The notes beneath the pieces were generated by a model, which saw only the letters and a list, made by a program, of their open reading frames with translations, was not told where the DNA came from and did no database searches. DNA of 64,000 nucleotides. It comes from Candidatus Stramentimicrobium fermentans. GTDB lineage: Bacteria; Atribacterota; Phoenicimicrobiia; Phoenicimicrobiales; Stramentimicrobiaceae. How positions within the stretch are numbered: position 1 is the first letter of the stretch; each line of letters begins with the position of its first letter. This document shows positions 22,690 through 59,049 of the stretch, piece after piece. The stretch covers positions 5,264 to 69,263 of the forward strand of contig JAAYOB010000002.1 in assembly GCA_012520575.1 (NCBI GenBank), in the 5' to 3' direction. The position numbers and the translations under genes were made by a program.

Positions 22690-25422
22690 CTAATAAGTTA
22701 ATTTTAATTTTTTTAAGAGTTCTACAAAAGGAATGGGTGTTAAGGAGATAAAAATAACTACCAGCCATTGGACAGCAGTAAGTGCTGTTACTTGAAAAAC
22801 AGATTGTAAAAAAGGTATCAACATAACACCCAACTGTAAAAAAGCAGAGGCAATGATAGCCAGCACTAAATAACGGTTACTAAAAATACCTAAACTGAAG
22901 ATAGAAAATTTATTGGAGCGAGAGTTGAGGGAGTGAGCCAGTTGACTCAAACTCAAAGCACCAAAAGCCATAGTTTCACCAACCGCTAAAGAATACCGGC
23001 TATAGCCATAATAAAAAGCAATCAGGGTTATTGATCCAATAAAAACCCCTTGAGAGAAAATATTAAAGCCCATCTTGCCTGAAAAGAAACCTTCCTTGGG
23101 ATTACGGGGGTGTTGACTCATCACATCCCGTTCTGCCGGGTCTAGCCCTAAAGCCAAAGCAGCTAAACCATCGGTCACCAGATTGACCCAGAGAATTTGA
23201 ATAGGCAAGAGCGGACGTGGCCAGCCGATCAGGATAGCCACAAATATGGTTAAAATTTCTCCTAAATTGCAAGATAGTAAATAATTAATAAATTTTCTGA
23301 TATTCTGATAAATCTTTCGGCCTTCTTCTATGGCTCGCACGATAGAGTAAAAATTATCATCAGTTAAAACCATATCCGCTGCCTCTTTAGCTACATCGGT
23401 CCCGGTGATGCCCATAGCCACCCCGATATCCGCCTCTTTCAGTGCCGGTGCGTCATTGGCACCATCCCCGGTCATGGCTACCACCTGTCCGTTCTTTTGC
23501 AGAGCTTGAACAATCCTCATCTTGTGACGTGGCGATACCCGGGCAAAAATTGCAGTCTGTCCTACCACCTGTTCCAATTCCTCTTGAGACATCTGTTCTA
23601 ATTCTATGCCGGTAATTATTTTATCCTGGGGATAATATATGCCTATCTTCTCAGCAATCGCCTGGGCGGTTAGGGCAAAATCACCGGTTATGATAACGGG
23701 GCGAATTCCTGCCTGACGGCAAGTCTGCACCGCCTCAACCGCCTCTTTGCGGGGCGGGTCAATCATAGCAGCCAGCCCTAAAAAGGTTAACCCATTTTCC
23801 AACCGGTCAGGATCCAATTTTTTATTCTTATCTATTCCTTCCAACTCTTGAGGGCTTATACGCCGGTAAGCAACCGCCAAAACACGCAATGCCATGGCTG
23901 CTAATTCATTATTCCGTGCTATAATCTTTTCCCTAAAGCCATCAGATACAGTTAGTTCTTGTCCATCATTTCTAAAGGTAACACTGCGCTCTATAATACT
24001 TTCCGAGGCTCCTTTGGTAAACAGCATATAATCCCCTGCCGGTGTGCGGTGAATGGTGGACATTCTCTTCCGTTCAGCATCAAAAAGTACCTCCCTGACG
24101 CGGGGGTATTCTTTTTCCAATCCTTCCTTCTGATAACCTGCTTTGGCAGCAGCTACCACCAATGCTCCTTCAGTGGGATCACCGATAATCTCCCATTGCC
24201 GGTCATCTTCGTTCTTTCTTAAATAGGAATTGTTACAAAGTGCGGCGGCTTTTAATAAGAGAGATAGGGTTTCATAATCACGAGGACTAATAATGTGCAC
24301 ACCTTCCAGAAAATGTCCGGCAGGTTGATATCCTACACCTTCCACCTCAATCTCTCGTTCCGGCAAAACCAGTCTTTGTACTGTCATCTGGTTTTGAGTC
24401 AATGTTCCGGTCTTATCAGAGCAGATTACAGTCGTGGCACCTAAGGTTTCTACTGCCGGCAGACGTCTGATAATGGCATTTTTCTTAATCATCTGTTGTA
24501 CGCCTAAAGCAAGCACTATAGTGACAACCGCCGGTAACCCTTCCGGAACTGCGGCAACCGCCAGGGAAATACCGGTAAGGAACATATCAAAAAAGGGAAT
24601 TCCCCGCCAGTAGCCTAATAAAACAACAACTATTACTATTGCCAGGATAATTATTCCTAAGTTTTTTCCAACCTGGTTCAGCTTTTTTTGCAGAGGCGTT
24701 AACTCTCTTTGTTGTTCCTGCAACATCCCGGCAATTTGGCCGATTTCAGTATTCATACCGGTGCCAACTACTATTCCCTTGCCACGACCGGTTACTATCG
24801 TAGTGCCCGTATAAGCCATATTGAAACGGTCGCCCAACGACACCTCTCCCTGACTGGTCAGCTCCCGATCATTCTTTTCTACCGGTTCTGATTCTCCGGT
24901 CAATACCGCTTCTTGAATACCTAATTCAGTAACTTCAAATAGGCGTAGGTCAGCAGGAATCCGCTCACCTGCCTCTAAAAATACTATATCTCCGGGCACT
25001 AATTGAGTAGATTTTATTTTTTTCTGTCTTCCTCCCCTTAATACCAGGGCTTCCGGAACGGTCATCTTTTTTAAGGCATCGAGGGATTTCTCTGCTTTAA
25101 ACTCCTGTACTACGCTCAAGGTAGCATTTAAAATTACAATGATACCGATAATAATCGCATCAGTCACCTCTCCCAATAACACAGAAATAGCGGCAGAGAC
25201 TAATAAGATTATAATCAAAACATCGCTAAACTGGTCTAAGAACATCTGCCAGATAGTCCTTTTTCTACCCTCTTGCAATTGGTTCGGCCCGATTTTCTCC
25301 AACCGCAGCTCAGCCTCAGCAGGCGTTAGCCCCACCTGTAAAGAGGTTTTTAAATCCTGCTCGACCTCTGGCACTGTCTTTAAATAATATTTAACTGGTA
25401 CTTGCTCTATTTTTTCATTCAT
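22690..25422 (-). CDS. P-type cation-transporting ATPase, Ca2+ (P2A/P2B) type
   Basis: 910 aa. Phosphorylation motif DKTGTLT, TGES, hinge GDGANDAPAL. Ten TM segments. Confidence 0.85.
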   Translation of the reverse strand: MNEKIEQVPVKYYLKTVPEVEQDLKTSLQVGLTPAEAELRLEKIGPNQLQEGRKRTIWQMFLDQFSDVLIIILLVSAAISVLLGEVTDAIIIGIIVILNATLSVVQEFKAEKSLDALKKMTVPEALVLRGGRQKKIKSTQLVPGDIVFLEAGERIPADLRLFEVTELGIQEAVLTGESEPVEKNDRELTSQGEVSLGDRFNMAYTGTTIVTGRGKGIVVGTGMNTEIGQIAGMLQEQQRELTPLQKKLNQVGKNLGIIILAIVIVVVLLGYWRGIPFFDMFLTGISLAVAAVPEGLPAVVTIVLALGVQQMIKKNAIIRRLPAVETLGATTVICSDKTGTLTQNQMTVQRLVLPEREIEVEGVGYQPAGHFLEGVHIISPRDYETLSLLLKAAALCNNSYLRKNEDDRQWEIIGDPTEGALVVAAAKAGYQKEGLEKEYPRVREVLFDAERKRMSTIHRTPAGDYMLFTKGASESIIERSVTFRNDGQELTVSDGFREKIIARNNELAAMALRVLAVAYRRISPQELEGIDKNKKLDPDRLENGLTFLGLAAMIDPPRKEAVEAVQTCRQAGIRPVIITGDFALTAQAIAEKIGIYYPQDKIITGIELEQMSQEELEQVVGQTAIFARVSPRHKMRIVQALQKNGQVVAMTGDGANDAPALKEADIGVAMGITGTDVAKEAADMVLTDDNFYSIVRAIEEGRKIYQNIRKFINYLLSCNLGEILTIFVAILIGWPRPLLPIQILWVNLVTDGLAALALGLDPAERDVMSQHPRNPKEGFFSGKMGFNIFSQGVFIGSITLIAFYYGYSRYSLAVGETMAFGALSLSQLAHSLNSRSNKFSIFSLGIFSNRYLVLAIIASAFLQLGVMLIPFLQSVFQVTALTAVQWLVVIFISLTPIPFVELLKKLKLTY

Positions 25423-25499
25423 CGGTTAAATTTAACACCTCGCCGAACTAACATTATAATTTTACTCAAAATACTTTTTAAGTAGGGGTATATTTTTCA

Positions 25500-26030
25500 G
25501 TTCCTGTATGCATCCACCAAAGCTCTTGCCCTTATCGGATAAGCTTGTTAAAAGGCTGCTGTGTATTTTTAGAGTTTGGCGGCAGTGCTCTCGGTAAAAT
25601 TGTTTACCTTCCCCAGAAAGGGCAACCAGCACCTCCGCCTATCCTGTTGGGCACGGCACCTTTGCAGCAATCCCCGTTTAATCAGGCAGTCTACCATACT
25701 GGTCATAGTATTGGGGACAACTCGAATTAATTGAGAGGGCTTGCCCATAGATACAAATGTTTCTTGCCTAAATATTCGATAATAAAGTGTTTACAAATGC
25801 TTAAAGTTGGACCTTCCTTGCTACAAGAACACCGGGCAACATGTAGCCGGAGCATTTCCATTAATTTAAGAAGGGGCTCTCCATGTTACTGGCGGCCTTT
25901 CCCCCCGGCTTTACTTCCCTGCCCATTCTCATAAGCAAGAAATAGCCCTATCGTACGAATATCGTATATTGTAATTTTTGTTCTATCAATATGGTAGGAA
26001 CCTGCACTCGGAAAGTCAAGATAATGCCAA
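25500..26030. other. GC-rich structured non-coding island between the P-type ATPase start and the creatininase gene; unassigned (possible ncRNA or leader)
   Basis: GC content is clearly above the surrounding AT-rich intergenic DNA. Long imperfect hairpin GGCGGCAGTGCT...AGCACCTCCGCC (25579-25639) enclosing GGTAAAattgTTTACC. Nested palindrome CTTATCgGATAAG. Only short unconvincing ORFs. Confidence 0.3.
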
Positions 26031-26385
26031 CGAAAAAAGATAATACACCTTAAAAATTTGTTCCTGCCAATTTTTCTTAGTTGTTTTAGTTCTCTTCTTA
26101 AAAATCTAAAATAATCTCAGCTAGCTTCAAAGCTGGATCCTATCGGAAAATGCCAGAGATTGATAAACAGGTTGGCCAGAAGGCCTATGCCTGAACCATC
26201 TGTTCTTTTATGCCGCTTTATTTTCGCTATTTACTTTTCAAAGGATTTATCAAGTTAAATTTACTGCTTAGGTTGAATATTTTTTATTGAATTGGCAGAG
26301 TATTTTGGGTGATAAAGAGATTATTGATTTAAAAAAATAGTTGATTTAAATTGTTTTATTTACATTCCTATTTTTGCTTATTAAT

Positions 26386-27162
26386 TTAATTAGCCAGCCC
26401 ATTCGCAATATCATCAAACAAATATGAAAACTCTTGGACCATGATCTGAAAGAGCTCTTTTCCTGTGCTTTTTAAAGCTGCCCTAGGCTCTCCAATAACT
26501 CCAATATCGCTATAATGAGAAAAAGGCCTATACTGGTGTATTCTTTTGTTTGTGAACATGCCGGGCTGAAAATATTTTTTAGCTTCTATTATTCCCCCCA
26601 TTAAATTTTCAGTATCAACAAGGTCGGGAGACAGGTAAAGTTGCAATGAAGTTTCTAGCTCCCCGGCATGCCCCATTCCTCCTTTTTGTGACCTTTGAGC
26701 TTTTTGGATAATTTCTGAAAAATAATTATAGTATGTTACGAGTATAGGGTAAATATTATGACTTGCTCCTAATTCATCAACCACTGTTCTTAAAATTCCG
26801 ACATTCCCCCCATGGCTATTTATAATTAGAATATTCTTTATTTTATGAGCATCTAGACTCACACAAATATCCAAAACGAAGTTGCTAAAAGTTGCCTGTC
26901 TTAAGGTTATGCTGCCGCAAAAATCCATGTGATGAGGCGAATAACCAACCCAAATAGGTGGTAAAATTAACACTTTTTCCTTTGCTAGCAAAGCTGCTTC
27001 CTCTATTAAACGATATCCGATTGTTGTATCTGTTTCCAAGGGCAGATGAAAACCGTGCTGTTCACAAGAGCCTACGGCAATAACAACTACTGTTTTATCG
27101 TCAATATAAGACTTCAGTTCATTAGATTTAAATTTAACCCAATAAATATTTTTGTTTTTCAT
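26386..27162 (-). CDS. Creatininase-family amidohydrolase
   Basis: GSCEQHGFHLPLETD metal-binding motif of the creatinine amidohydrolase / MftE-like family. Confidence 0.75.
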   Translation of the reverse strand: MKNKNIYWVKFKSNELKSYIDDKTVVVIAVGSCEQHGFHLPLETDTTIGYRLIEEAALLAKEKVLILPPIWVGYSPHHMDFCGSITLRQATFSNFVLDICVSLDAHKIKNILIINSHGGNVGILRTVVDELGASHNIYPILVTYYNYFSEIIQKAQRSQKGGMGHAGELETSLQLYLSPDLVDTENLMGGIIEAKKYFQPGMFTNKRIHQYRPFSHYSDIGVIGEPRAALKSTGKELFQIMVQEFSYLFDDIANGLAN

Positions 27163-27420
27163 GATACGATAATTACTCCTTCTTACAGTTTTATTTGTAC
27201 TAATTTTAAATAGTGTCTACGCTTTAGTCTAAACTAATCTAAAAAAATTGGCCATGCATGTTCACTTTCCTATAGAATATTTATAACCGAAAGGATTAGC
27301 ATAGGAGGAGCAGAAGCACACTTGACCAAAATCTAACCGTATTATCATTTTAATTACAGCGTACTTGGACACGGATATAAAAGAATGTAAGCTGCTTAGC
27401 CTATACAGGTCGCCTACTTG

Positions 27421-27744
27421 CTATGGTTTATCAATAAATTTACTTGAATTTATTTTTATAATGATGTTTTCTATTAAATTTTGTCCAATTTCCTGGTTTA
27501 ATATATTGATAATTTCACCTTTTCTAATAACTATTTCGCTTGCCCAGATATGGTTTTTAACCATTAAAAAAAGATTATTATTCTGAATTTTCAGTGGTTT
27601 GGTATTTAGGGCAATTTCAGGAGGAAGAATATCTTCCCAAGAATCAAAAAAATTGTAACCATCGACTCTCTGTGTCCAATTGCGCGATTTAAAAAATGAT
27701 TGGACAATCTCATTGATATGTCTTGGTTCCTTACTCTCCATCAT
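27421..27744 (-). CDS. DUF721-domain protein (DciA/RemB-like) downstream of recF
   Basis: 107 aa. The pattern W..I..P.I...T.P..I.N..L.V.V..S.WA.E......EI...LN matches DUF721. Overlaps the recF stop by 14 nt. Same position as Rv0004/dciA and B. subtilis yaaB. Confidence 0.55.
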   Translation of the reverse strand: MMESKEPRHINEIVQSFFKSRNWTQRVDGYNFFDSWEDILPPEIALNTKPLKIQNNNLFLMVKNHIWASEIVIRKGEIINILNQEIGQNLIENIIIKINSSKFIDKP

Positions 27745-28882
27745 TCTGCATTGTCCCGTCCTTTATTCGGAATATTTTTGAGGAGGAATTAATATTATAT
27801 TGTGTCAAGTCTTCTATATCTATACTGGTAATAAAAGTTTGCAGAGGCCTTTCTTTGATTATTTTCATTAAAAATAATCTTCTTTCTGAATCAAGCTCTG
27901 ATAAGACATCATCTAGCAGCAAGGGGGGGTACTCACGGTCTTTCTCCTTCAATAGTTCCAATTCGGCCATTTTCAGAGCTAACACTGCGGTGCGCTGCTG
28001 CCCCTGGGAACCATAAATACCTAAATCCACTAAATTGTTCATAATAAAGTAATCATCTCGATGGGGACCGACAGTGGTTACTTTAAGTCTTAAATCTTGT
28101 TCTTTGGCCTGGCTGAGTTTCTGTTCAAAAATATTTCCTATCTCCTCATTATCTTCTGAAAAAGATGTTAAAATATTACTGTTATATTTTAGTTTTAAAA
28201 CTTCCTGGTTTTTAGTCATCAATTGATGTATGATTTTAACTTTTTGATTCATTATTTGTAAGGTTTTCACCCTATACCGGATAATCATGCTTCCTATTTC
28301 TACTATTTTCTGGTCCCAGACAGTTAAGTGTTGCTCTAAATTGCTTTTACTTTCTATGCTCTTTAACAACATATTTCTCTGGAATAGTACGCGGCTATAG
28401 TCCCTTAGGTAGCGTTCATAGATAGGATTAAGATTAATAATCACCTCATCCAAAAATTTTCTTCTAACAGAGGGAGAGCTTTTAATGATTTGCAGGTCTT
28501 CTGGTGTAAATATTACCGGGGTGAATCTTTTGGTGAGCCAGGATTTTTGCCGGTATTTTTTATTTACTTTGATAATTTTTTTGGCTTTTTTAGGCAGGGA
28601 ATTTATCCGGTCAATGTCTTGGAGTAGAATATTAATTTGAAATTTTTCTTTATTTTTACTTACTTCCCCTAAAATATAACTTTCTTTTTCAGACCAGTTT
28701 ATTAAATTGGAATCCTCTTTGGCTCGGTAACTATTTCCTCTTAGTAAGGTATAAATCGATTCAATAACATTTGTTTTACCTTGGGCATTATCGCCTATGA
28801 AAATGTTTAAGGAGCTATGAAAATTAAAAGAAGCATCTTTAAAATTTCTAAAATTAATTAATCTAATCTTATCAACATTCAA
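27731..28882 (-). CDS. recF: DNA replication and repair protein RecF
   Basis: N-terminal Walker A GDNAQGKTN. SMC-like signature and Walker B near the C-terminus. dnaA-dnaN-recF synteny. Confidence 0.85.
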   Translation of the reverse strand: MNVDKIRLINFRNFKDASFNFHSSLNIFIGDNAQGKTNVIESIYTLLRGNSYRAKEDSNLINWSEKESYILGEVSKNKEKFQINILLQDIDRINSLPKKAKKIIKVNKKYRQKSWLTKRFTPVIFTPEDLQIIKSSPSVRRKFLDEVIINLNPIYERYLRDYSRVLFQRNMLLKSIESKSNLEQHLTVWDQKIVEIGSMIIRYRVKTLQIMNQKVKIIHQLMTKNQEVLKLKYNSNILTSFSEDNEEIGNIFEQKLSQAKEQDLRLKVTTVGPHRDDYFIMNNLVDLGIYGSQGQQRTAVLALKMAELELLKEKDREYPPLLLDDVLSELDSERRLFLMKIIKERPLQTFITSIDIEDLTQYNINSSSKIFRIKDGTMQNDGE

Positions 28883-28944: not shown

Positions 28945-30117
28945 TTAACTCATTCTTACCGGCATCAAAACATAGCTATATTGTTCTTCTTTAGCAACTG
29001 GATTAATCATAGCAGGATTTAGATTTTCATTTAATTTTATCTCAGTCTGATCTGTTTTAATAATTCTTAAAACATCATTTATATAACGGGAATTGAAGGA
29101 TATCTCAATATATTCCCCATCTATTAAGCAGGGAATCTGTTCACTGGCATCCCCTATATCCGGTGTGTTTACCTTTAAAATTAATTCTCCCCTATTTTCT
29201 CCTACCTGCTGAGAATAAATATGTGTTTCTAATCTGATAGTATTAATATCTTCTGTAACAAATAAACTGATTCTTTCCATTCTTTGTCTAAATTCTTCGG
29301 TATCTATTTTAATAGTAGTTTTAAATTGTTGAGGTATTATTTGGTGGTAATCAGGATATTGGCCATCGATAATGCGGGAAAATAACCTAATTCTATTCTT
29401 TTCCCCTTCCGAATTTAAAGTAAAAATAACCTGTTTTTCACCTAAATCTATTTCCACTATATTGTCATCCTCAAAGCTGAGTAATTTAAATAATTCAGAT
29501 AGTGCTCTCTGGGGAATAATAACTTCAAATTGGCTGTCTGTATCAATCCTATTCTTACCGGTTAATTTAATTTTTTTTAAGGCCAGACGGTGGCTGTCGG
29601 TTGCTACAATCTCTATTCCTTTTTCTACATTTTTAAATAAAATACCATTTAGAAAAGATCTGCTCTCATCCCTAGAAGAAGCAAATACCACCTCTTGTAT
29701 GGTCTCTTTTAATATTTTCTGTGTTAGTTTAATCTTTACTCTGCTTTGAACATCAGGAAATGGTGAAAAATCTTCAGCAGAAAACCCTAATATTTTATAG
29801 TTAGACATATCTTCTTCTTTAATATGAATTATATTATTTTTATCTACCTCAATCTCTATATTACCTTCCGGAAATTTTCTGATTAAATCGCTGAAAATTT
29901 TATTGGGAATAACTACCGCACCATGTTCTATAATCTGTGCGGAAATATAACAATCAATTCCTATTTCTAAATCGGTTGAAAATAAGTGAATTTTATTATC
30001 TTTAGTCACTTCAAAAAGAATACCGTTATATATAGGTAAACCAAGTTTGGTAGAAATGGCCTTCTGTACTATTTGAGTTCCGTTTTCTAAACTTTTTTGA
30101 GAACAGATAACTTTCAT
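28945..30117 (-). CDS. dnaN: DNA polymerase III beta sliding clamp
   Basis: 390 aa with three-domain clamp organisation. Directly downstream of dnaA. Confidence 0.9.
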   Translation of the reverse strand: MKVICSQKSLENGTQIVQKAISTKLGLPIYNGILFEVTKDNKIHLFSTDLEIGIDCYISAQIIEHGAVVIPNKIFSDLIRKFPEGNIEIEVDKNNIIHIKEEDMSNYKILGFSAEDFSPFPDVQSRVKIKLTQKILKETIQEVVFASSRDESRSFLNGILFKNVEKGIEIVATDSHRLALKKIKLTGKNRIDTDSQFEVIIPQRALSELFKLLSFEDDNIVEIDLGEKQVIFTLNSEGEKNRIRLFSRIIDGQYPDYHQIIPQQFKTTIKIDTEEFRQRMERISLFVTEDINTIRLETHIYSQQVGENRGELILKVNTPDIGDASEQIPCLIDGEYIEISFNSRYINDVLRIIKTDQTEIKLNENLNPAMINPVAKEEQYSYVLMPVRMS

Positions 30118-30463
30118 TTTTTTTCTCCCATTCTTTATAGTTTGCTTAATATTTTTGAAATATATTAAATATAAGAATAAGTAGTATTAGTAGTAATAAT
30201 GTTAATAAAGTGAATAAATATTTTAATCTCATCTAATTTAACAGTTAAATATGTGGATATTATTCTTAATAATTATATCTTTTATTAACAATATTCACAT
30301 AACCATATTTATTATTATATTAATTTATTTACTTAAAAAACGAAGAAATTATTAATAAGTGTTATATTATAATATTGAAGGTATATTTCAAATTACAAAT
30401 TATTTTCTTACCCATTAAAAAGATATTAATAATTATTCATTATGAGCAAAATATATTTATTGT
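30118..30463. promoter_or_regulatory. AT-rich dnaA-dnaN intergenic region with DnaA-box-like sites (possible oriC half / DUE)
   Basis: More than 80% AT. Contains TGTGGATAT and ATATTCACA (one mismatch each to TGTGGATAA/TTATCCACA). Confidence 0.4.
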
Positions 30464-31843
30464 TTAAGAACTATTTTTAATCTTATTTATTATTCTATCT
30501 ATATCCAATTTTAGTTTGTTATCTTTTAACAGCTGTTCTCTAATCTTATTGCAGGAGTGAAGAACAGTGGTATGGTCTTTCCCTCCAAAAGAGGCACCAA
30601 TCACAGGGAGGGAGTTATCGGTTAATTCCCGGGACAGATACATGGCAATATGACGGGCAGTTACTATATTTCTAGTTCTTTTTTTGGATAATAATAAACC
30701 CATTTTGATATTAAAAAATTCTGCAGTGTGTCTTTGAATTAAAGGGATGGATATCTCTTTTCTCTCAATAGGAATAAGGTCTTTTAAGATTTGCTGGGCT
30801 TGGGTAAAGTCAACCTCTTTTTGACCTGTTAAATCTAAATATGCCTTCAATTTAATTAAAGCACTTTCCAATTGACGAATATTAGATGGCTTTTCGGCGA
30901 TATGATTTATAATATCATCAGAAACCTCTAATTGATAAAATTCTGACTTCTTTTGTAATATAGCAATCCTGGTTTCAAATTCAGGCATCTGAATATCAGT
31001 GATAAGACCCCATTCAAATCGGGAAACCAAACGGCTCTCTAAATTGGCGATATCTTTAGGTGGTTTATCCGAAGTAATAACAATCTGTTTTCCGGCATTG
31101 TATAGCGTATTAAAGGTATGAAAAAACTCTTCCTGAGTTCTTTCCTTCCCTACTAGGAACTGTATATCATCAATCAATAGGACATCATAATTACGATATT
31201 TTTCTCTAAAGGATACTGTGGCATCTTCTTTAATAGCGTTAATTAATTCATTGGTAAACTTTTCAGAAGAAATAAAAGCAATATTTATAGAATGAAGAGA
31301 ATTTTTGTTAACAATATAGTTTCCAATGGCATGCATAAGGTGTGTTTTACCTAATCCTACCCCACCATAGATAAAGAGGGGATTATAAGATTTTCCGGGA
31401 GATTGAGCTACTGCCAAGCTGGCAGCCTGGGCTAATCGGTTAGAGTCCCCTACCACAAAATCATCAAAAGTATATTTGCTATTTAAACCGGTTTCTCGAT
31501 ATTGTTTCTCCAGGATATCTTTATCCGCCGCCTTGTTCTTCTTCCCCCCGGCAATTAAATTTGTGGACGACTTCGGGCTTTTGATTGTATCTATACTAAA
31601 TTTAATGTTAATATCCCCCTCTAGCCCCAGTTGTTCCATAAAAATATTATTGATGAAATGGATGTGGTTTTTTTCCAGCCATTCTTTACAAAACTTATCG
31701 GGTACCGCAAGATGTAATTCATTATTTTTAAAGTCGATGAGTTGAATTCTGGAAAACCAGGTATTAAATATCTGCAGGCCCACTCTGTCCCGAATAATAT
31801 TTAGAGCTTCCTCCCATTTTTCATCTAATCGGTGATAGTTCAT
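30464..31843 (-). CDS. dnaA: Chromosomal replication initiator protein DnaA
   Basis: AAA+ Walker A GGVGLGKTHL, Walker B LLIDDIQ, domain IV DNA-binding C-terminus. Confidence 0.9.
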   Translation of the reverse strand: MNYHRLDEKWEEALNIIRDRVGLQIFNTWFSRIQLIDFKNNELHLAVPDKFCKEWLEKNHIHFINNIFMEQLGLEGDINIKFSIDTIKSPKSSTNLIAGGKKNKAADKDILEKQYRETGLNSKYTFDDFVVGDSNRLAQAASLAVAQSPGKSYNPLFIYGGVGLGKTHLMHAIGNYIVNKNSLHSINIAFISSEKFTNELINAIKEDATVSFREKYRNYDVLLIDDIQFLVGKERTQEEFFHTFNTLYNAGKQIVITSDKPPKDIANLESRLVSRFEWGLITDIQMPEFETRIAILQKKSEFYQLEVSDDIINHIAEKPSNIRQLESALIKLKAYLDLTGQKEVDFTQAQQILKDLIPIERKEISIPLIQRHTAEFFNIKMGLLLSKKRTRNIVTARHIAMYLSRELTDNSLPVIGASFGGKDHTTVLHSCNKIREQLLKDNKLKLDIDRIINKIKNSS

Positions 31844-32452
31844 AATAACCCTTAAATAGCATATAGTTTAATGGTAATTTAAGCAGCTGTTGAAAAGTTC
31901 AGCCCCAACTATTAAATAATTAAGAATTTAAAAAAGTATTAACAGTATTAACAATAGACTGTGGAAAACAATCTATGGGCTTCTTGATTAGATCAAAAAA
32001 GCCTTTGCCGTAATAAAAGTATTTTTCAAAAAAAATGGCTTTCAAAGGTTTCGGTAATAATAAAAGGTTTTTATCTAATTCACAGTTTATTAACAGTTGT
32101 GGATAAATAAGAAAAACAAAACCCAATTAAAATAAGAGCAAATTTAAAGTTTGTGTTTAAATTATACTCCTAATATCATAGCAAAAATATGGAAACATGC
32201 CAAGAAATTTTTTGAACACTTTCTCCAGCCAGAAGCAATGACAAATTTTAAAACGCTTTTCAGATTTTATAATATCTTGTTATTATAATTGAAATGAGGT
32301 AGACTATTTCAGTATTTGACATATTTATGGAATTATAGTTATAATTTGGAATCATAACTCGCTGGCTCAATATCAGCATGATTGGTTAAGTCTAACCAAG
32401 ACAGGAAAGATATAAAACAATTTCTAAATAGCTAACAGGAGAATAAAAACAA
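31844..32452. promoter_or_regulatory. dnaA-upstream origin region with DnaA boxes
   Basis: Perfect TGTGGATAA (32098-32106). TGTGGAAAA (31960-31968). TAATTCACA (32076-32084). AT-rich flanks. Lies between divergent dnaA and rpmH. Confidence 0.55.
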
Positions 32453-32593
32453 ATGAAGCGTACTTATCAGCCCAGTACCAGAAAGAGACTGAAGACACAC
32501 GGATTTCGTAAACGTATGAGTACTAAAAGCGGAAGACTTATCTTGAAAAGAAGAAGACAAAAAGGAAGGAAGAGATTAACCGTTTCCGGTTAG
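32453..32593 (+). CDS. rpmH: 50S ribosomal protein L34
   Basis: [46 protein letters not shown], 46 aa. Not in the ORF track because of its length. Confidence 0.9.
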
Positions 32594-32595
32594 AT

Positions 32596-32949
32596 GGCAA
32601 CCTAGTTAAGGAGAGTTCCATAAAAACTAGTGAGTTTAGAAGAGTTTTTTCCGGTGGAAATAAGATATTAGGAAAGAATATTGTACTCCATGTCCTATCA
32701 ACTCAGCAGGAGAATAATAAGGTAGGTATTATCGTTAAAAAGAGCATTGGCAATGCTGTACAGCGCAACAAAATTAGGCGAAGATTAAGGGAGATCTGGC
32801 GTCAACAGAATAAGGTGCTAAGTCCGGGCTATGATATGGTTATCGTCGCTCGAAAGGAGATTATCTCAGCTACGTTTGCCGAGATAGAACAAGAAATTAT
32901 AGAATTATTGCAAAGGAATAATATCAAATTGGTAAAGAGAGAAACATAA
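32596..32949 (+). CDS. rnpA: Ribonuclease P protein component
   Basis: SEFRRVFSGGNK...VGIIVKKSIGNAVQRNKIRRRLRE conserved RnpA core. The 5' boundary is uncertain: no in-frame ATG/GTG/TTG near the conserved N-terminus. Confidence 0.7.
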   Translation, partial: GNLVKESSIKTSEFRRVFSGGNKILGKNIVLHVLSTQQENNKVGIIVKKSIGNAVQRNKIRRRLREIWRQQNKVLSPGYDMVIVARKEIISATFAEIEQEIIELLQRNNIKLVKRET

Positions 32950-34752: not shown

Positions 34753-34905
34753 AAAGCACTTATTAGAGACCGCCAAGGAGTATGCCTTAAAAAGGGCTTA
34801 ATAAAGATTACCGTTAAATAACAGTTAAAGCAAGACTATCTACAATAATAAAAACAAGTTTATAAAAATACATAATTATTTTGTTAATAATTTAAATAAG
34901 AAATT

Positions 34906-34939
34906 GCAGATACCCACGGGCAAACTCGTGGGTATCTGC
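34906..34939. repeat. Perfect 13-bp inverted repeat (GCAGATACCCACG-n8-CGTGGGTATCTGC) in the jag-mnmE spacer
   Basis: Seen directly. No U-tract follows, so not a canonical terminator. Lies ~50 nt upstream of the mnmE ATG. Confidence 0.4.
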
Positions 34940-34987
34940 GCAAAAGAAGATGCCGGTAAGAGACTAATAGATAAAACGCGATGTAAG

Positions 34988-36421
34988 ATGAAAACCAAGC
35001 CATTCTGTAATAAGAATAAAGAAAATGATACCATCGTTGCCATATCTACACCACAAGGTATTGGCGGTATTGGAATTGTTCGTATCAGCGGTCCCCGTGC
35101 CATTGAGATTGCCGGTAAAATATTTCGCTCTAAAGGGAAAATAGAGATGAAACCCGGAGCATTTTACAGTCACCGCATCTATTATGGAACAATTGTTTGC
35201 CCGGTCTCAGATTCTGTAGTAGATGAGGTTTTACTGACCGTGATGCGCAAGCCGAAGACTTATACCAGAGAGGATGTGGTGGAAATCAATTGTCATGGCG
35301 GCTATTTTGCGGTGAATAAAGTGCTGGAAATGGTCCATAAACTGGGAGCTAGGATCGCGGAACCGGGAGAATTTACCAAATTAGCTTTTTTAAGTGGACG
35401 AATAGACTTAAGTCAAGCGGAAGCAGTTATCGATGTCATTAATGCCGGTAATGAAAAAAGTTTGTGTTCTTCCTTAAAACATCTTTCCGGGGGCTTAAAG
35501 AACAAAATAGCCGAGTTAAAGAACCGTATAATCAGTTTAAATGCCGGGATTGAAGCAATGCTCGATTTTCCGGACCAGGGTCTTGGCGATATTGACAAGG
35601 AGAAAATAAAAAAAATACTAAAAATATGTCTCCGAGAAGTAGATAAATTGTTGAATACCGTAAAATACGGAATGCTTATCAAAGAAGGAATCGGCACCAT
35701 TATTTTAGGAAAGACCAATGTGGGAAAATCCAGCCTTTTTAACCTATTATTAAAGAAAAATAAATCAATAGTCACTCCATTACCGGGAACAACAAGAGAC
35801 ATCATTGAGGGAACTATAGACATTAAAGGACTTACTTTTAATTTAATTGATACTGCCGGAATCAAAACTCCCGAAAATATTGTAGAAAAGATAAGCTTAC
35901 AGAAGGTAAACGAGCAAATGGAATTTGCCAGTCTGTTCTTAATAATGTTTGATATTAGTCAACCGCTTGATTCTCACGATCTTAACCTCATTAAAAGAAT
36001 AAAATCTTTCCATAATAGTAATATCATCAAAATATTTATTTTAAATAAGACTGACCTTCCGCCAAAGTTGGACCAATCCAAATTAGTGCATCTGCTTGGA
36101 GGAGATAAATTTGTTAAAATATCCATTAAAAAAGGGATAGGCATCAATGCTTTATTAGAAAATATAGCTCAGCATATTTTATCCGACCTCTATATACCTG
36201 AGGAAGGACTTGTAATAAGCAATAAAAGGCACCAAGAATATTTACTTAAAATACAAAACTCTCTATCCAGTCTTATTCAAAGCTTAAGGGAAGGGATGCC
36301 CATTGATTTGGTAACCCTGGACCTTAGATACATTATCAATCAACTGGCTAATATTACCGGCGAATCTTATGACGATGAAATAATCAAAACTATATTTTCC
36401 CGGTTCTGTATCGGTAAATAA
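34988..36421 (+). CDS. mnmE: tRNA modification GTPase MnmE (TrmE)
   Basis: N-terminal DTIVAISTPQGIGGIGIVRISG, G-domain GKTNVGKSS, C-terminal CIGK. ATG 34988 was chosen over the track's upstream extension. Confidence 0.85.
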   Translation: MKTKPFCNKNKENDTIVAISTPQGIGGIGIVRISGPRAIEIAGKIFRSKGKIEMKPGAFYSHRIYYGTIVCPVSDSVVDEVLLTVMRKPKTYTREDVVEINCHGGYFAVNKVLEMVHKLGARIAEPGEFTKLAFLSGRIDLSQAEAVIDVINAGNEKSLCSSLKHLSGGLKNKIAELKNRIISLNAGIEAMLDFPDQGLGDIDKEKIKKILKICLREVDKLLNTVKYGMLIKEGIGTIILGKTNVGKSSLFNLLLKKNKSIVTPLPGTTRDIIEGTIDIKGLTFNLIDTAGIKTPENIVEKISLQKVNEQMEFASLFLIMFDISQPLDSHDLNLIKRIKSFHNSNIIKIFILNKTDLPPKLDQSKLVHLLGGDKFVKISIKKGIGINALLENIAQHILSDLYIPEEGLVISNKRHQEYLLKIQNSLSSLIQSLREGMPIDLVTLDLRYIINQLANITGESYDDEIIKTIFSRFCIGK

Positions 36422-36674
36422 GAATGCTTTAAAAAATCTAAGTCTATCTTAAAATACCCGTCCCCATATTAGGCTGTCTCAGAACATCATTAAAACCGAA
36501 ACTGCATATCCGGCCTTGCCTCGGCTAAGTTAAGAAAGTTCCCATAATTTTGCAAAATTAGGGATGCATCATATCAGTTAACATAGGTTAAAACTAACAA
36601 AAATAGATAATATTGAACCAATATTATCTTTATAGAAATCTTTCTATGACTTTAAAGAAGTAGAAATAGTTTAA

Positions 36675-36690
36675 TGTTCCACGTGGAACA
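36675..36690. promoter_or_regulatory. parS site 1 (TGTTCCACGTGGAACA) within a 26-bp perfect palindrome
   Basis: 15/16 match to the Firmicutes parS consensus TGTTNCACGTGAAACA. Extended palindrome TTTAATGTTCCACGTGGAACATTAAA (36670-36695). Confidence 0.7.
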
Positions 36691-36998
36691 TTAAACTCAA
36701 ACATAATTCATTATCATATTAAAAACGGAAATTGCTGTTTCGGTCTGCTGTTTGATAAATTATTAATTAGATATAAAGAAAAGCTAATATCTAATTGTTG
36801 CCATATTCTTTATATATTAAGGCAGAATAACAGAATCAGTTTAAGGTAAGATTTACGCTTAAAGGAAACAAAGAAGACTTATTTTTTATATACTGTCCGT
36901 AATTAATGAGAAGCTTTACCGGCAGAAAAGTCCCTTCCTCCAGAATAATAAGAGATAAGGAGAAGTAAAAAACTATAGATTCTAATAAGATTTTATAT

Positions 36999-37250
36999 TT
37001 GTGAATAAGCTGTGGAAAAATACAAAAACACACTTTTGGTTGCACCTAGAGAAAATTAACAAAAAGATAGTTCGAAAATTATTTAGGAGAAATAGAGGAG
37101 AATTTTACGTTGAAAGGCATACTTCTACAGGCCTTTTTATGAAAATAACTAAAAAATAACCCGGAATTCTATTAGCCTAATATACATATATAAATATAAT
37201 AATAAATTGTGGAAAACCTGTGGAAAATGAAAATTGTTAATGTGGAAGAC
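36999..37250. promoter_or_regulatory. Cluster of five same-orientation DnaA-box-like 9-mers plus adjacent AT-rich tract (candidate oriC core / DnaA-box cluster)
   Basis: TGTGAATAA 37000-37008. TGTGGAAAA at 37011, 37208 and 37219. TGTGGAAGA at 37241. AT-only stretch ATATACATATATAAATATAATAATAAA just upstream. Confidence 0.5.
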
Positions 37251-37529
37251 AGAAATTAGAATGTTATGGAAGATGGCGCCCCCCAATCCGGGTAAGGAAT
37301 GTTTGAAAAGACCTTTGTATTTTGGATATTTTTTTGATAATATAAAATTGCTTTGTTTTGTTAAAGTATAAAAAGCATTGACTATTTTACCGGTTTCCAA
37401 AGTATGGAGTAACTTTATGCAATAACTTATTGTTAGATTAGTATTTAATATTTTTATTTTCTACTGTATAATTGGAGAGAAGTTCGAAATTAACCCTTAA
37501 TCTGCCGAGATGTTTTTATGAATTTAATA

Positions 37530-37545
37530 TGTTCCACGTGGAACA
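37530..37545. promoter_or_regulatory. parS site 2 (TGTTCCACGTGGAACA), 29 nt upstream of parA
   Basis: 16-mer identical to site 1. Confidence 0.7.
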
Positions 37546-37573
37546 ATTTTTTAAATAAGAGGACTGGTCGATA

Positions 37574-38335
37574 ATGGGTAAAATAATAGTAATCGGCAAT
37601 CAAAAGGGCGGAGTGGGGAAGACCACTACCGCCATTAATTTGAGTGCTTTCTTAGCCCTGGAGGGAAAGAAGGTATTATTGGTTGATATTGATCCACAGG
37701 GCAATGCCAGCAGTGGTATAGGAGTGGAACGTTCTAAAATTAAGAAGACTATCTACGATAGTTTGATTAATCAAGTTCCTATACAGGAAGTTCTGATTCC
37801 CAGCCAGATTAAAAATCTTGATGTTTTGCCATCCACACTGCAGTTAGCTGGTGCTGAAATTGAATTAGTAAATTATATTTCTCGAGAAAACCGTTTAAAA
37901 CAACTTCTTCGAACCATTAGAGAGGATTACAATTATATTATTATTGACACCCCTCCTTCTCTAGGGCTTCTTACCTTAAACGCCCTGAATGCCGCCGATT
38001 CCGTTATTATTCCGGTGCAATGTGAGTACTACGCTCTGGAAGGTATCGGGCAATTGCTCAATACCATAACGCTGGTAAAAGAAAATTTAAATCCTAATTT
38101 AGCCATAGAGGGGATTTTGTTGACCATGTATGATGTTCGAAATAATCTCTCGAAAGAGGTAGCAGAAGAGATCGAAAAACATTTCCACGGCAGTGTTTTC
38201 CAGTCGGTTATTCCTCGTAATGTGCGTTTAAGTGAGGCGCCCAGCTATGGCCAGCCCATTGTTCTCTATGAGGCAAAGTCCCGGGGTGCGCAAGCCTATC
38301 ACAAGTTAGCCGGGGAGGTAATAGCTAATGGCTAA
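37574..38335 (+). CDS. soj: Chromosome partitioning ATPase ParA/Soj
   Basis: Deviant Walker A GNQKGGVGKTTT. 253 aa. Confidence 0.85.
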   Translation: MGKIIVIGNQKGGVGKTTTAINLSAFLALEGKKVLLVDIDPQGNASSGIGVERSKIKKTIYDSLINQVPIQEVLIPSQIKNLDVLPSTLQLAGAEIELVNYISRENRLKQLLRTIREDYNYIIIDTPPSLGLLTLNALNAADSVIIPVQCEYYALEGIGQLLNTITLVKENLNPNLAIEGILLTMYDVRNNLSKEVAEEIEKHFHGSVFQSVIPRNVRLSEAPSYGQPIVLYEAKSRGAQAYHKLAGEVIANG

Positions 38336-39170
38336 AAAGGGTTTAGGAAAAGGATTGGAATCGATAATACCAATCTCTAGTATACAGGATAGGTCCTACG
38401 TGATGGAGGTGGAGATTGAACAGCTAACCCCCAATTTATATCAACCACGACAGGCTTTTGATCAGGAAAAAATGAATGAACTAAAGGAGTCCATAAGAGC
38501 ACATGGTATTATTCAGCCCATTATTGTTCGAGAATCAGCTCAAGGGTACGAAATAGTAGCCGGTGAAAGGAGATTGAGAGCTGCCCAAGAACTGGGCATG
38601 AAAACCATACCGGTTATTATTCGCCAATTCAATAATCTCAAGACTTTAGAAGTAGCCTTAGTGGAGAACATACAAAGAGAAGACTTGAATCCAATTGAAC
38701 AGGCGTTTGCCTTTAAAAGATTAGTAGAAGAATTTAAACTTACTCATCAAGAATTGGCTGCCATAACCGGGAAGAGCAGATCTTTTATTACCAATACTCT
38801 GCGCTTACTTAATTTAGATGAATGGGTCAGGGAAAAGATAGCTTCTGGTAAGATTACCTCCGGACATGGCAAGGTGCTGTTAGGCATAGAAGAAAAGCAG
38901 ATTCAAAAGGAATTCGGACAAAAAATAATGGAACAGGAGTTATCCGTACGAGATTCGGAAAGATTAGTGGAGCGTTGGCTAAAAATAAAAGATAAAAAAT
39001 TCTCTTACAATAAAAGCAAGATCCAATATTATCCTGAAATAGAGAAAAAGTTGAGAACCAAATTAGGAACCAGAGTAAATGTTAAATTTAGCGGGAAAAA
39101 AGGAAAGATTACTATTGAATTTTATAGCAGTGATGATTTGAACAGAATTTCCGGCTTTATTCTAAATTAA
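38328..39170 (+). CDS. spo0J: Chromosome partitioning protein ParB/Spo0J
   Basis: ParB box GERRLRAA, HTH, C-terminal dimerisation region. Start overlaps parA by 8 nt. Confidence 0.85.
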   Translation: MAKKGLGKGLESIIPISSIQDRSYVMEVEIEQLTPNLYQPRQAFDQEKMNELKESIRAHGIIQPIIVRESAQGYEIVAGERRLRAAQELGMKTIPVIIRQFNNLKTLEVALVENIQREDLNPIEQAFAFKRLVEEFKLTHQELAAITGKSRSFITNTLRLLNLDEWVREKIASGKITSGHGKVLLGIEEKQIQKEFGQKIMEQELSVRDSERLVERWLKIKDKKFSYNKSKIQYYPEIEKKLRTKLGTRVNVKFSGKKGKITIEFYSSDDLNRISGFILN

Positions 39171-39202: not shown

Positions 39203-39751
39203 ATGAAAGAAAAAGTCTTTAACAGTATAGTGTTTGTTTTTTTTATTGTTATATTGTTGACAGTATCTTTGAAATGTTTTTTAATATCTTTCCATATTAT
39301 TGAGAGAGAGCATTTAATTAATCTCATTGTAGAGAATCTAAATCTGATTTACAGCGATGTGATTTATAAGACAATGCTGGCTTTAGTCGGATTAGTCTTT
39401 TTCTTACTGGCCCTTGGTCTTATATTGGTCAAACAGAGGATGGTGCAGCGGCAGCTCCATGTTAAAGTTATTACTGATTTTGGTGAGATAAAGGTTTCTC
39501 TTTTCTCTTTAGAGCAGGTTATTCTAAATATACTTAAAGAAGTGGGCGGGGTAAAGAGAATAAAACCGGAGATTCAAATACAGAAAGGCGGAGATATTAA
39601 AACAGTTTTAGAACTGGTTGTTGCTAAAGATAGTAATATACCGGATGTTGCAACCACCATTCAGCGTAAATTAAAAGAAGAACTGCCTAAAATCAGCGGA
39701 GCTGTTTTAAGGGAAGTAAAAATTAACGTTAACAAGATTGACTTTGAGTAA
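39203..39751 (+). CDS. Alkaline-shock-protein membrane anchor AmaP-like (DUF2273/DUF4446-like)
   Basis: Two N-terminal TM helices plus a soluble domain. Immediately precedes an Asp23-family gene, as amaP-asp23 does. Confidence 0.45.
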   Translation: MKEKVFNSIVFVFFIVILLTVSLKCFLISFHIIEREHLINLIVENLNLIYSDVIYKTMLALVGLVFFLLALGLILVKQRMVQRQLHVKVITDFGEIKVSLFSLEQVILNILKEVGGVKRIKPEIQIQKGGDIKTVLELVVAKDSNIPDVATTIQRKLKEELPKISGAVLREVKINVNKIDFE

Positions 39752-39787
39752 TATAAAATAAATCCAAAATTAAGGGGGTATTAATTT

Positions 39788-40276
39788 ATGGATATTCTGG
39801 AAAATAAGAATATAGAAAAAAAATCGGCAGAAGAAGAGAAGAATTTAGAATTGGGGAAAATCTCTGTTTCTAAAGATGTTGTTGCTATTATCGTAGCAAT
39901 GGAGGCAATTAAAGTAAAAGGTGTAGTGGGCTTAACAGGCGGCAGAAAAGGTCTTGCCGCACCGATTTTAGATAAGAACAATTTGAACAAAGGTATTGAT
40001 GTGGTGATGGCCCAGAATCAGAAAGAAGTTGCCTTAACTGTATCATTGGTAGCAGACTATAGTGTTGGTATCTATCAGACTGCCCGGGAAGTACAGAAAA
40101 ATATTAAAAAAGCTGTAGAGACCATGGCCGGCTTAATAGTCTCTAAGGTAGATATAAATGTTCTCGATGTTAAATTTAAAGAAGACTTAGAAAAGGAGAA
40201 AAAAGAGGAAGATACTAAAAAAGAGAAGCCTGTTGAGGTAAAAGAAAAAACTCCTGCTAAAAAGGATGATAAATAA
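39788..40276 (+). CDS. Asp23/Gls24-family alkaline shock protein
   Basis: ISVSKDVVAIIVAMEAIKVKGVVGL core. Lys/Glu-rich tail. Confidence 0.75.
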   Translation: MDILENKNIEKKSAEEEKNLELGKISVSKDVVAIIVAMEAIKVKGVVGLTGGRKGLAAPILDKNNLNKGIDVVMAQNQKEVALTVSLVADYSVGIYQTAREVQKNIKKAVETMAGLIVSKVDINVLDVKFKEDLEKEKKEEDTKKEKPVEVKEKTPAKKDDK

Positions 40277-55115: not shown

Positions 55116-55124
55116 GGAGAAAAA

Positions 55125-55307
55125 ATGAAAACTTTTCTTTTCCCCGAATTTCTTAAATTAGACTTGATAATCTGGGCAATATTAGTAATTATTTTTGTCC
55201 TATTTACCTGGCATATCCATAGTTTACCCTATGATGCCATCGATAAGGTCAAAGCACAGGCCATTGAAAATAAAAAACGATTAGGAATTAAAATCTATAA
55301 AATATAA
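55125..55307 (+). CDS. Small membrane protein (60 aa) coupled to the symporter
   Basis: AAGGAGA RBS. One TM helix. Confidence 0.3.
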   Translation: MKTFLFPEFLKLDLIIWAILVIIFVLFTWHIHSLPYDAIDKVKAQAIENKKRLGIKIYKI

Positions 55308-55707
55308 TATATTTTTAACATTATTTCTTAAAACCTTACTTTTCCCAAATAGATACAGAAACTGAAATAATTGTCTAGAAGTAAATGGATATTGGAAAGG
55401 GGAACAAAAATTATTGCCGGACTTGCCTTTGGAATAATTCATACGGCTACCATTAGGGAATATATACTAGTGACATTGCTATCAGCTCTGATAGGAAAGG
55501 CATTTTTAATTTCAAATTAGAAAAGAAAAAATAAAAACTTTGCAAAAGCTGATTGAACAAAGTAAACAATAATTGGCTTAGTACATACTTTATATCTACA
55601 AAAGGAGATGAGTCTATTTGGCAAAAACGGAGAAATATTTTAGTATTTAGCTACTTTGTATGATACTTTTAGCTTTTCCCACCTATAATTAAGGAGGAAA
55701 GGAAGCT

Positions 55708-56040
55708 ATGAAAAAAAGTTGTAAAAAGCAATACATTTTAGTAACCCATATTATCAAAAAAGAAAACGAACAATATGTAGCTACTTGCCCAGAATTTGAT
55801 GTATCTTCTTTTGGCGATACTGTGGAAGAAGCTAATAATAGTTTGAGAGAGGCAATTTTGTTATATTTAGAAGGTATAGAAAGCTTAAATATTCTAGATC
55901 AAATTTTCAAAGAAAAAGCCATTGTAACTTATGAAAGAAAACCTAAATCTGTAACCAGTGATTATAGATTTGCAGATGATCTGGATGGCCAGCCTTTTGT
56001 TACTAAAAAGTCTCTAAATGTTGCTTTATGCAATTCTTAA
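55708..56040 (+). CDS. hicB: HicB-family antitoxin
   Basis: N-terminal YVATCPEFDVSSFGDTVEEANNSLREAILLYLEG, matching the HicB/UPF0150 fold. Strong RBS AAGGAGGAAAGG. Confidence 0.6.
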   Translation: MKKSCKKQYILVTHIIKKENEQYVATCPEFDVSSFGDTVEEANNSLREAILLYLEGIESLNILDQIFKEKAIVTYERKPKSVTSDYRFADDLDGQPFVTKKSLNVALCNS

Positions 56041-56050
56041 TAAAATGTAA

Positions 56051-59030: not shown

Positions 59031-59049
59031 ACTATAAAAAATTTTATAA

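Follow-up and report, generated by a model that had tools for sequence, protein, structure and literature searches.

The mnmE-parA interval

The stretch analysed here, hereafter the window, comprises 64 kb of contig JAAYOB010000002.1 (positions 5,264 to 69,263) of Candidatus Stramentimicrobium fermentans, a member of the phylum Atribacterota. The element in question is a cluster of DnaA boxes bracketed by two parS sites in the gap between mnmE and the segregation genes parAB. According to Pfam, on which the gene identities rest, mnmE (34904-36421) is followed on the same (+) strand by parA (37574-38335) and parB (38328-39170), which form the parAB operon (37574-39170). The gap covers 36422-37573 (1152 bp) and has a GC content of 29%, against 15% in the dnaA-dnaN spacer, which is the most AT-rich one. 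It contains no open reading frame (ORF) of Pfam scale, no tRNA and no Rfam match at gathering and E-value thresholds. Three listed ORFs (36836-37045 on the - strand, 37001-37159 on the + strand and 37149-37400 on the - strand) have no support beyond the nearest relative and were rejected.

Two identical and perfect parS palindromes (TGTTCCACGTGGAACA) lie in this gap. The core of parS1 (36675-36690) sits inside a perfect 30-bp palindrome (36668-36697), 253 bp past the mnmE stop codon, and parS2 (37530-37545) is located 29 bp 5' of the parA start codon. Both sites correspond to the 16-bp palindrome tGTTNCACGTGAAACa of chromosomal parS, and the window holds no other match even with up to three mismatches (0.09 expected). 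They are situated beside parAB and 5-7 kb from the dnaA-flanking origin described below, and the proteins expected of a ParABS system are encoded next to them: ParA (AAA_31/ParA) has the deviant Walker A motif KGGVGKT, and ParB (ParB_N, HTH_ParB and ParB_C) has a helix-turn-helix and the cytidine triphosphate (CTP)-binding motif GERR. We predict that ParB loads at both sites, which would serve as centromeres, the first past mnmE and the second in the parAB leader. The position of parS2 in the leader, i.e., within the 5' untranslated region of parAB, follows from the putative parAB promoter at 37315-37343.

Between the parS sites lie five co-oriented DnaA boxes on the + strand, four of which form two head-to-tail pairs. 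Pair 1 (37000-37019) consists of TGTGAATAA at 37000 and TGTGGAAAA at 37011, separated by gc and 11 bp apart from start to start; pair 2 (37208-37227) consists of TGTGGAAAA at 37208 and again at 37219, separated by cc. All four pair boxes fit TTWTNCACA and fall within 228 bp. The fifth, weaker box (TGTGGAAGA, 37241-37249) has two mismatches to TGTGGATAA and is lineage-specific, as it is not conserved in an alignment of 11 loci (A7). A further copy of TGTGGAAAA is found upstream of dnaA, at 31960. The DnaA encoded in the window has a Bac_DnaA_C domain and, in domain IV, the motif GGKDHTTVLH, which we take to be the counterpart of E. coli D433-H439; the box-reading residues are accordingly present.

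The window as a whole is not enriched in boxes, with 22 at up to one mismatch (19.8 expected) and seven exact TGTGRAWAA (4.1 expected). In contrast, four exact TGTGRAWAA on the same strand within 250 bp did not occur in any of 1000 simulated 64-kb sequences, whose composition was that of either the window or the gap. The parS pair is real, and so is the box cluster; neither is random. In the gap, pure A/T runs reach at most 23 bp (37186-37208; about 31 bp if one C is allowed), and this longest one sits between the pairs, directly 5' of pair 2. A first-pass annotation of this DNA had instead described a 37-bp pure A/T tract upstream of all five boxes, which is too long and misplaced. Its other descriptive statements agree with our results: about 1.15 kb of non-coding DNA after mnmE, two identical perfect parS palindromes bounding it, five co-oriented box-like 9-mers within 250 bp and the same box variant upstream of dnaA.

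Conservation of the layout in Atribacterota

The best genome match of the MnmE of the window is a Candidatus Atribacteria MAG (64% identity), and its nearest proteins in a large collection are named Atribacterota. Ten further Atribacterota loci, with MnmE identities of 100% to 50%, were fetched for comparison (n=11 including the window; single loci are given as L numbers). The common order in 11 of 11 loci is mnmE, parS, tandem pair, spacer, second tandem pair, (rsmG), promoter, parS, parAB. Pair 1 reads TGTGAATAA-nn-TGTGGAAAA or a close variant thereof, and pair 2 TGTGGAAAA-nn-TGTGGAAAA. In the alignments of the box cluster (A1, 8 loci; A7, 11 loci) the columns of pair 1 are invariant, and the box columns in general are invariant or nearly so, amid intergenic DNA whose divergence approaches randomness. 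The two parS sites are likewise present in all 11 loci, with no or one mismatch: one just 3' of mnmE, the other upstream of parA, at 28-50 bp from the start codon in nine loci and at about 100-310 bp in the two most distant ones (L089 and L088). An identical layout is present in a second assembly of the same species, and the same gene neighbourhood recurs in 23 further contigs.

In 75 mnmE loci of non-Atribacterota, mostly Bacillota, the DNA downstream of mnmE never holds two boxes in its first 600 bp or a parS in its first 1.5 kb. Within this comparison sample the layout is confined to Atribacterota.

Spacing of the box pairs

Measured from pair 1 to pair 2, nine loci show distances of 205, 207, 207, 208, 208, 209, 209, 209 and 210 bp; the two most distant loci have 243 bp. 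The neighbouring segments are far more variable, ranging from 20 to about 1375 bp between parS1 and pair 1 and from about 260 to 1530 bp between pair 2 and parS2. The inter-pair spacer (37020-37207 in the window) is thus conserved in length but not in sequence, with almost no conserved columns in A1 and A7. RNAalifold predicted zero base pairs in the spacers of 8 loci, and the only conserved peptides shared by their six-frame ORFs are those encoded by the boxes. We also rejected an array of low-affinity boxes spaced by 11 bp between the pairs, as in E. coli, because the in-register mean mismatch (5.9-6.2) is no lower than that of the other phases.

The combination of constrained length and free sequence therefore points to a geometric requirement between two DnaA-bound pairs, and the strict spacing suggests a DnaA-bridged loop. 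We also note insertions in two relatives that leave the box-pair distance undisturbed, namely a lineage-specific Transposase_mut/MULE gene between jag and mnmE in L084 (6433-7566) and about 1.4 kb of additional DNA between parS1 and box pair 1 in L085 (9590-10950).

Loss of rsmG and the parAB promoter

The gap was thought by the first-pass annotation to replace mnmG and rsmG, which holds for the latter gene only, and only in the clade of the window. rsmG is present in 8 of the 11 loci and missing from the window, L081 (identical, same species), L082 (78% MnmE identity) and L083 (70%), where the gap measures 1152-1219 bp. mnmG, by contrast, is absent from the locus in all Atribacterota examined and from the entire 64-kb window, and its absence is therefore a trait of all sampled loci and not the outcome of a replacement event. 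An ORF of 607 aa at 50516-52339, considered as mnmG, encodes an aldehyde:ferredoxin oxidoreductase instead.

A tblastn search with five Atribacterota RsmG proteins detected neither a remnant in the gap nor an rsmG elsewhere in the window. At the nucleotide level (blastn, alignment A6), however, positions 37305-37354 match the rsmG stop region of L084, L085, L086, L088, L089 and L090. They comprise the last ~25 bp of the coding sequence (37305-37329, + strand) and the sequence directly past its stop codon. The first-pass annotation had named a degraded gene remnant in relatives as evidence against its own reading, and this applies in part: rsmG occupies the corresponding interval there, and the window keeps a 3' stub of it. 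The clade of the window has thus lost the gene at this locus (37228-37329 in the window, with equivalents in L082 and L083) but retained its 3' end together with the conserved putative promoter, and we suppose that the gap is what this deletion left behind. In other bacteria the loss of rsmG results in low-level streptomycin resistance (PMC13438810).

In six of the eight rsmG-carrying loci the called rsmG start lies at pair 2 or within it; in L088 and L089 it follows the pair by about 300-390 bp. In several of the six, pair 2 is translated in-frame as C-G-K-x-V-E, but the frame is broken in L001, so that the conserved element is DNA and not protein. The called RsmG of L084, L085, L086 and L087 extends 5' through pair 2, with the canonical N-terminus starting some 15-40 codons later. 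Because of this late N-terminus and the interrupted frame in L001, the C-G-K-x-V-E extension is probably an error of gene calling brought about by the conserved boxes. Furthermore, three loci without rsmG keep the boxes at the same spacing, from which it follows that the function of the boxes is independent of the rsmG coding sequence.

Directly after the rsmG stop codon the sequence TTTTGATAATAT is nearly invariant in 10 of 11 loci (A6). From this conservation and the match to consensus we infer the parAB promoter at 37315-37343 (+ strand), with a -35 TTGTAT (37315-37320), a 17-nt spacer and an extended -10 TG-a-TAATAT (37335-37343). It would lie about 110 bp downstream of pair 2. A generic promoter scan omits this candidate, since its -35 matches only 3/6 positions; the scan found 12 matches in the gap against 7.3 expected, which is not decisive. 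The ribosome-binding site AAGAGGA and the ATG start of parA (37557-37576, + strand), read from the sequence, are conserved in A6.

Where replication starts

Replication most likely starts at a bipartite oriC of the Bacillota type that flanks dnaA, with unwinding in the dnaA-dnaN spacer. This spacer (30118-30463; GC 15%) holds a module on the + strand (30182-30217) that consists of DnaA-trios (TAGTATTAGTAGTAATAA) followed by the box-like TGTTAATAA and AGTGAATAA. Viewed from the dnaN side, the order is AT-rich DNA, the triplets TAG TAT TAG TAG TAA TAA (30182-30199), TGTTAATAA/AGTGAATAA (30200-30217) and further boxes. This block is conserved in 7 of 7 Atribacterota loci that include the spacer (alignment A2). 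We scanned the whole window for boxes (up to two mismatches) preceded within 16 bp by consecutive TAN triplets, and the dnaA-dnaN site came out on top with a score of 9, the next best reaching 5. It also ranks first in eight of nine spacer-containing loci, with scores of 7-11. In reverse complement, the trios of L082 (TAGTAGTAATAGTAGTAG) match exactly the core of the trio element of C. difficile oriC2, whose melting has been shown by experiment. The module is probably the real unwinding site of the oriC of this phylum.

On the other side of dnaA, two conserved three-box modules are found upstream of the gene: GTATTAACA twice and TGTGGAAAA at 31936-31968, and TAATTCACA, TTATTAACA and TGTGGATAA at 32076-32106. 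Together with the trio module in the dnaA-dnaN spacer they lead us to a bipartite origin in the style of Bacillota. The modules are 138 bp apart in the window and 136-140 bp in 7 loci (A3). In each of them two TTATTAACA-like boxes face one TGTGGAWAA, and they represent a second case of fixed box-module spacing with poorly conserved intervening sequence.

The cumulative skew reaches its minima at 31830 (G-C) and 31840 (A-T), by the start codon of dnaA, and the cluster lies about 5.2 kb to their right; the minimum was thus found at dnaA only, within the limited resolution of a 64-kb window. For all experimentally confirmed oriCs a rule has been reported by which the gene on the side of the DNA-unwinding element (DUE) of a TGTGNAWAA box is transcribed away from it (bioRxiv 10.1101/2025.08.05.668638). 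The dnaN-dnaA spacer conforms to this rule, and the gap violates it, as mnmE (+) is transcribed towards the boxes.

The module between dnaA and dnaN has the order and orientation of the basal unwinding system, which was worked out in B. subtilis and is widespread. Tandem head-to-tail box pairs are most common in that system, and the gap does possess such pairs (37000-37019 and 37208-37227). Their scores in the trio scan nevertheless do not exceed 3, TAA TAA TAA is present only in the window and in L082, and the gap lacks the expected set of at least three DnaA-trios (3'-GAT-5' type) within 16 bp of a box on its correct side (PMC8287927). Neither is there a conserved AT-rich unwinding element at the gap boxes: the A/T run at 37186-37208 is kept only in L082, the closest relative. 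In the absence of conserved trios and of a conserved unwinding element, and with mnmE transcribed into the gap, the cluster is best read as a non-origin cluster, of the kind of the B. subtilis clusters, P. aeruginosa oriCII and E. coli datA. It has the properties of one, with dense boxes of the high-affinity type in intergenic DNA, close to the origin and kept in 11 of 11 loci. The relocated oriC or functional unwinding site proposed in the first-pass annotation is therefore not supported, given the canonical module between dnaA and dnaN, the skew minima at dnaA and the lack of conserved trios in the gap.

Comparison with known systems

Three elements of the locus are already known from other bacteria, namely parS at parAB, clusters of DnaA boxes that lie outside oriC, and the association of such boxes with the mnmE/gid/par block. 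What is new is their universal presence in the eleven sampled loci of a little-studied phylum, the design of two pairs at a fixed distance bracketed by parS, and the persistence of this design after the loss of rsmG.

The closest known case is oriCII of P. aeruginosa, a DnaA-box cluster upstream of gidAB-parAB that overlaps the 5' end of gidA (mnmG). DnaA binds to it in vitro, operon expression and the ParB level fall when it is deleted, and it drives plasmid replication but is dispensable for chromosome initiation; its nearest box lies 130 bp upstream of the -35. The element described here resembles it in having about five TTWTNCACA boxes after the mnmE block, upstream of a gid/par operon and about 5 kb from a dnaA-linked origin. 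Also shared are the distance of more than 100 bp between the nearest box and the influenced promoter (an influence that is putative in the window), the conservation across a large clade and the interpretation as a site other than that of chromosomal initiation. However, Atribacterota lack mnmG at the locus, and the window also lacks rsmG. Their boxes form two strict tandem pairs at a fixed distance of about 208 bp, unlike the mixed-orientation array of oriCII, and are bracketed by parS within about 0.02-1.5 kb, whereas parS1-4 of P. aeruginosa are 10-20 kb away from parAB. oriCII has 13-mer/DUE-like sequences and is a plasmid origin, while no conserved DUE or trios were found in the gap, and there is no sequence homology between the two. 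As no Atribacterota locus examined has mnmG, we regard the element as working like oriCII, but not as its homologue or as an oriCII itself.

Next in likeness are the DnaA-box clusters of B. subtilis. Stable DnaA binding occurs there at oriC-proximal clusters including the jag-thdF spacer, and DnaA weakly represses thdF-gidA-gidB-noc (Ishikawa 2007, PMC2533591; Okumura 2012, PMC3245932). Deletion of six oriC-proximal clusters leads to early initiation and is synthetically severe with the loss of spo0J (PMC2533591; PMC3245932). Like the B. subtilis cluster DBC[jag-thdF], the gap cluster is intergenic and outside oriC, in the same jag-mnmE-...-parAB block and a few kb from a bipartite dnaA-flanking origin. 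The B. subtilis cluster differs in its position upstream of mnmE, one gene to the left, and in having more boxes in a mixed arrangement, no flanking parS pair and no reported conserved spacing. As with oriCII, the likeness is one of function and not of homology.

The gene order of E. coli and Vibrio places oriC next to mnmG. The boxes of the gap occupy an equivalent slot, between the mnmE side and the gid/par side, to that of this oriC by mnmG (gidA) and of the predicted oriC2 of Halomonadaceae (bioRxiv 10.1101/2025.08.05.668638). The latter are actual or predicted initiation sites with a DUE, trios, an R1-type box and a gene transcribed away from them, and the Atribacterota cluster differs from them in each of these respects.

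The likeness to the bipartite oriC of Bacillota (B. subtilis incAB/incC; C. difficile oriC1/oriC2, PMC7561715) concerns the dnaA region of the window, where box clusters lie on either side of dnaA. Between dnaA and dnaN, starting at dnaN, the AT-rich tract, the (TAG/TAA)n trios and the box pair come in the same order and orientation. A difference lies in the helicase loader: Bacillota use DnaD/DnaB/DnaI, but Atribacterota encode DciA next to recF. The DciA-family gene of the window (27421-27744) adjoins recF and indicates a DciA-type loader beside an otherwise Bacillota-like origin layout.

Lastly, the regulatory DNA loop between araO2 and araI that is formed by AraC spans about 210 bp. The gap resembles it in function, without belonging to the same class, by two operator sets about 20 turns apart and a length-constrained but sequence-free spacer next to a promoter. 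Here, in contrast, the protein would be DnaA, and looping is suggested by the conserved spacing only.

Possible function of the element

We slightly favour, at a probability of roughly 0.55, reading the gap as a fused control region that serves the Atribacterota (rsmG-)parAB locus, and not as a site of chromosome unwinding. Besides the parS sites and the putative parAB promoter it holds the cluster, with its two head-to-tail, same-strand pairs of consensus-class boxes about 208 bp (about 20 helical turns) apart. DnaA would bind each tandem pair cooperatively, and the two loaded pairs may contact each other and loop out the intervening ~190 bp. Such a bridge would account for the fixed distance with freely changing sequence. 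In relatives with rsmG, the leader or promoter region of that gene would fall inside the loop, and DnaA occupancy would tune the transcription that enters rsmG-parAB. In the window, DnaA would exert its effect a short way 5' of the parAB promoter. The four strong boxes, 5-7 kb from oriC, may sequester DnaA as a side effect, and the two flanking parS sites would supply ParB clamps that cover the same DNA.

Several points weigh against this reading. DnaA binding, looping and regulation in Atribacterota are deduced purely from sequence features, conservation and geometry. Across a range of 205-210 bp the number of helical turns is not kept exactly constant, and the inter-pair distance can shift, as it has in the 243-bp class. 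Neither scan nor alignment revealed a convincing sigma-70-type promoter between the pairs, and a candidate -10 (TATAAA/TATAAG) in the rsmG-carrying loci has no matching -35; we therefore keep a promoter at this position as a weak assumption only. Four boxes would also make a small sink compared to datA or the B. subtilis clusters. Sites 5-7 kb apart, moreover, are below the resolution of the skew, whose minimum falls where gene orientation switches, so that the case against an origin in the gap rests mainly on motif architecture.

It is possible, though we doubt it, that the cluster is purely a sink for DnaA of the datA or B. subtilis type, which delays re-initiation and affects rsmG and parAB only incidentally. 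Four consensus-class boxes at the highest local density of the window, 5-7 kb from the dnaA-flanking origin, would suit such a role, the oriC-proximal clusters of B. subtilis act in this way and interact genetically with spo0J/soj, and the boxes have outlasted rsmG. Titration alone, however, explains neither the fixed distance between the pairs nor why pair 2 and the rsmG start coincide or adjoin in six of the eight rsmG-carrying loci, and four sites have a low capacity. The fallback of the first-pass annotation, a titration cluster tied to ParB loading, is compatible with all our results and close to the reading that we favour. A cluster that organises the ParB complex is bracketed by parS as one would expect (11 of 11 loci): DnaA might form a roadblock or boundary for ParB-CTP clamps, or might be held near a Soj-like ParA for local regulation, and GERR in ParB and the deviant Walker A motif in ParA are present. 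Cross-talk between Soj/Spo0J and DnaA and synergy between box clusters and spo0J are established in B. subtilis. Nevertheless this is unlikely, as the highly variable distances between parS and boxes (20 to ~1375 bp for parS1, ~260 to 1530 bp for parS2) mean that no fixed geometry ties the one to the other. In most bacteria parS sites cluster around parAB whether or not DnaA boxes are present, and we know of no precedent for DnaA as a roadblock to ParB.

A functional origin in the gap, either a relocated oriC or a second one in which DnaA at pair 2 opens the adjacent A/T tract, appears very improbable. Tandem head-to-tail pairs are what the basal unwinding system most commonly uses, pair 2 of the window and of L082 is directly preceded by a correctly oriented A/T run with TAA TAA TAA, and in gammaproteobacteria an origin occupies the corresponding position by mnmG (oriC of E. 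coli; oriCII/oriC2 of Pseudomonadaceae and Halomonadaceae, working or plasmid-competent). Against this stand trio scores of at most 3, compared to 7-11 at dnaA-dnaN (8/9 loci), an A/T run that is not conserved past the nearest relative, the transcription of mnmE into the element in conflict with the rule for confirmed oriCs, the skew minima at 31.8 kb, and a complete and conserved bipartite origin of the Bacillota type around dnaA, 7 kb away. Hardly more credible is that the cluster itself works in initiation, as a conditional second origin or as a module that DnaA bridges to the dnaA-flanking oriC, inside the ParB complex. If this were true, initiation and centromere loading would share the same ~1 kb of DNA, and the association of DnaA boxes with gid-par (Pseudomonadota, Bacillota, Atribacterota) would be ancestral and the raw material for an E. 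coli-type oriC adjacent to mnmG. Scarcely to be believed, finally, is a non-functional relic or a chance arrangement, e.g., a decayed ancestral origin or the remains of rsmG. The interval has indeed lost a gene and keeps its 3' stub, yet box columns stay (nearly) invariant amid diverged intergenic DNA, the inter-pair spacing is conserved, and the cluster never arose in the simulations.

The surrounding gene block

The origin gene block is present in the window in inverted orientation (Pfam). On the - strand lie recF (27731-28882), dnaN (28945-30117) and dnaA (30464-31843), and on the + strand rpmH (32453-32593) is followed by rnpA, yidD, yidC and jag/khpB, all + as well. The rnpA frame (32594-32949) is open and RnpA-like from about 32596, with no in-frame ATG, GTG or TTG before 32815, and rnpA is likewise uncalled on the contig L081 of the same species; it may use a non-canonical start or be coupled to rpmH. 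In the relatives L086, L087 and L088, gyrB comes after dciA-recF-dnaN-dnaA. The neighbours of dciA in the window are instead a creatininase-family gene (26386-27162) and a P-type cation ATPase (22690-25422), and gyrB has consequently been displaced from this origin block (region 22690-27744). At the other end, two Asp23-family genes and a DUF401 gene (39203-40276 in the window) follow parB in every Atribacterota locus examined, and the syntenic block therefore reaches beyond parAB. The segment at about 55000-64000 has a low GC content (30-33% versus about 40% elsewhere) and encodes a restriction endonuclease of the GmrSD type fused to DUF4268 (56499-59030); it is likely a defence or mobile island. 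A single isolated TGTGGAAAA occurs in it at 59089.

Implications

The analysis corrects the attractive idea of a relocated origin: the oriC of this lineage is most likely Bacillota-like and bipartite, around dnaA and with a textbook trio element. It further extends a recurring theme, the DnaA-box cluster on the mnmE/gid/par block as seen in B. subtilis and Pseudomonas, to a deep-branching and almost uncultured phylum. With four strong boxes, a fixed spacing of about 20 turns and parS on both sides, the locus offers a clean architecture for the study of DnaA looping and of a coupling between DnaA and ParABS, to which the natural variants with and without rsmG add value. If DnaA controls parAB here, this would lend further comparative-genomic support to the view that the level of the initiator is wired to the supply of segregation proteins.

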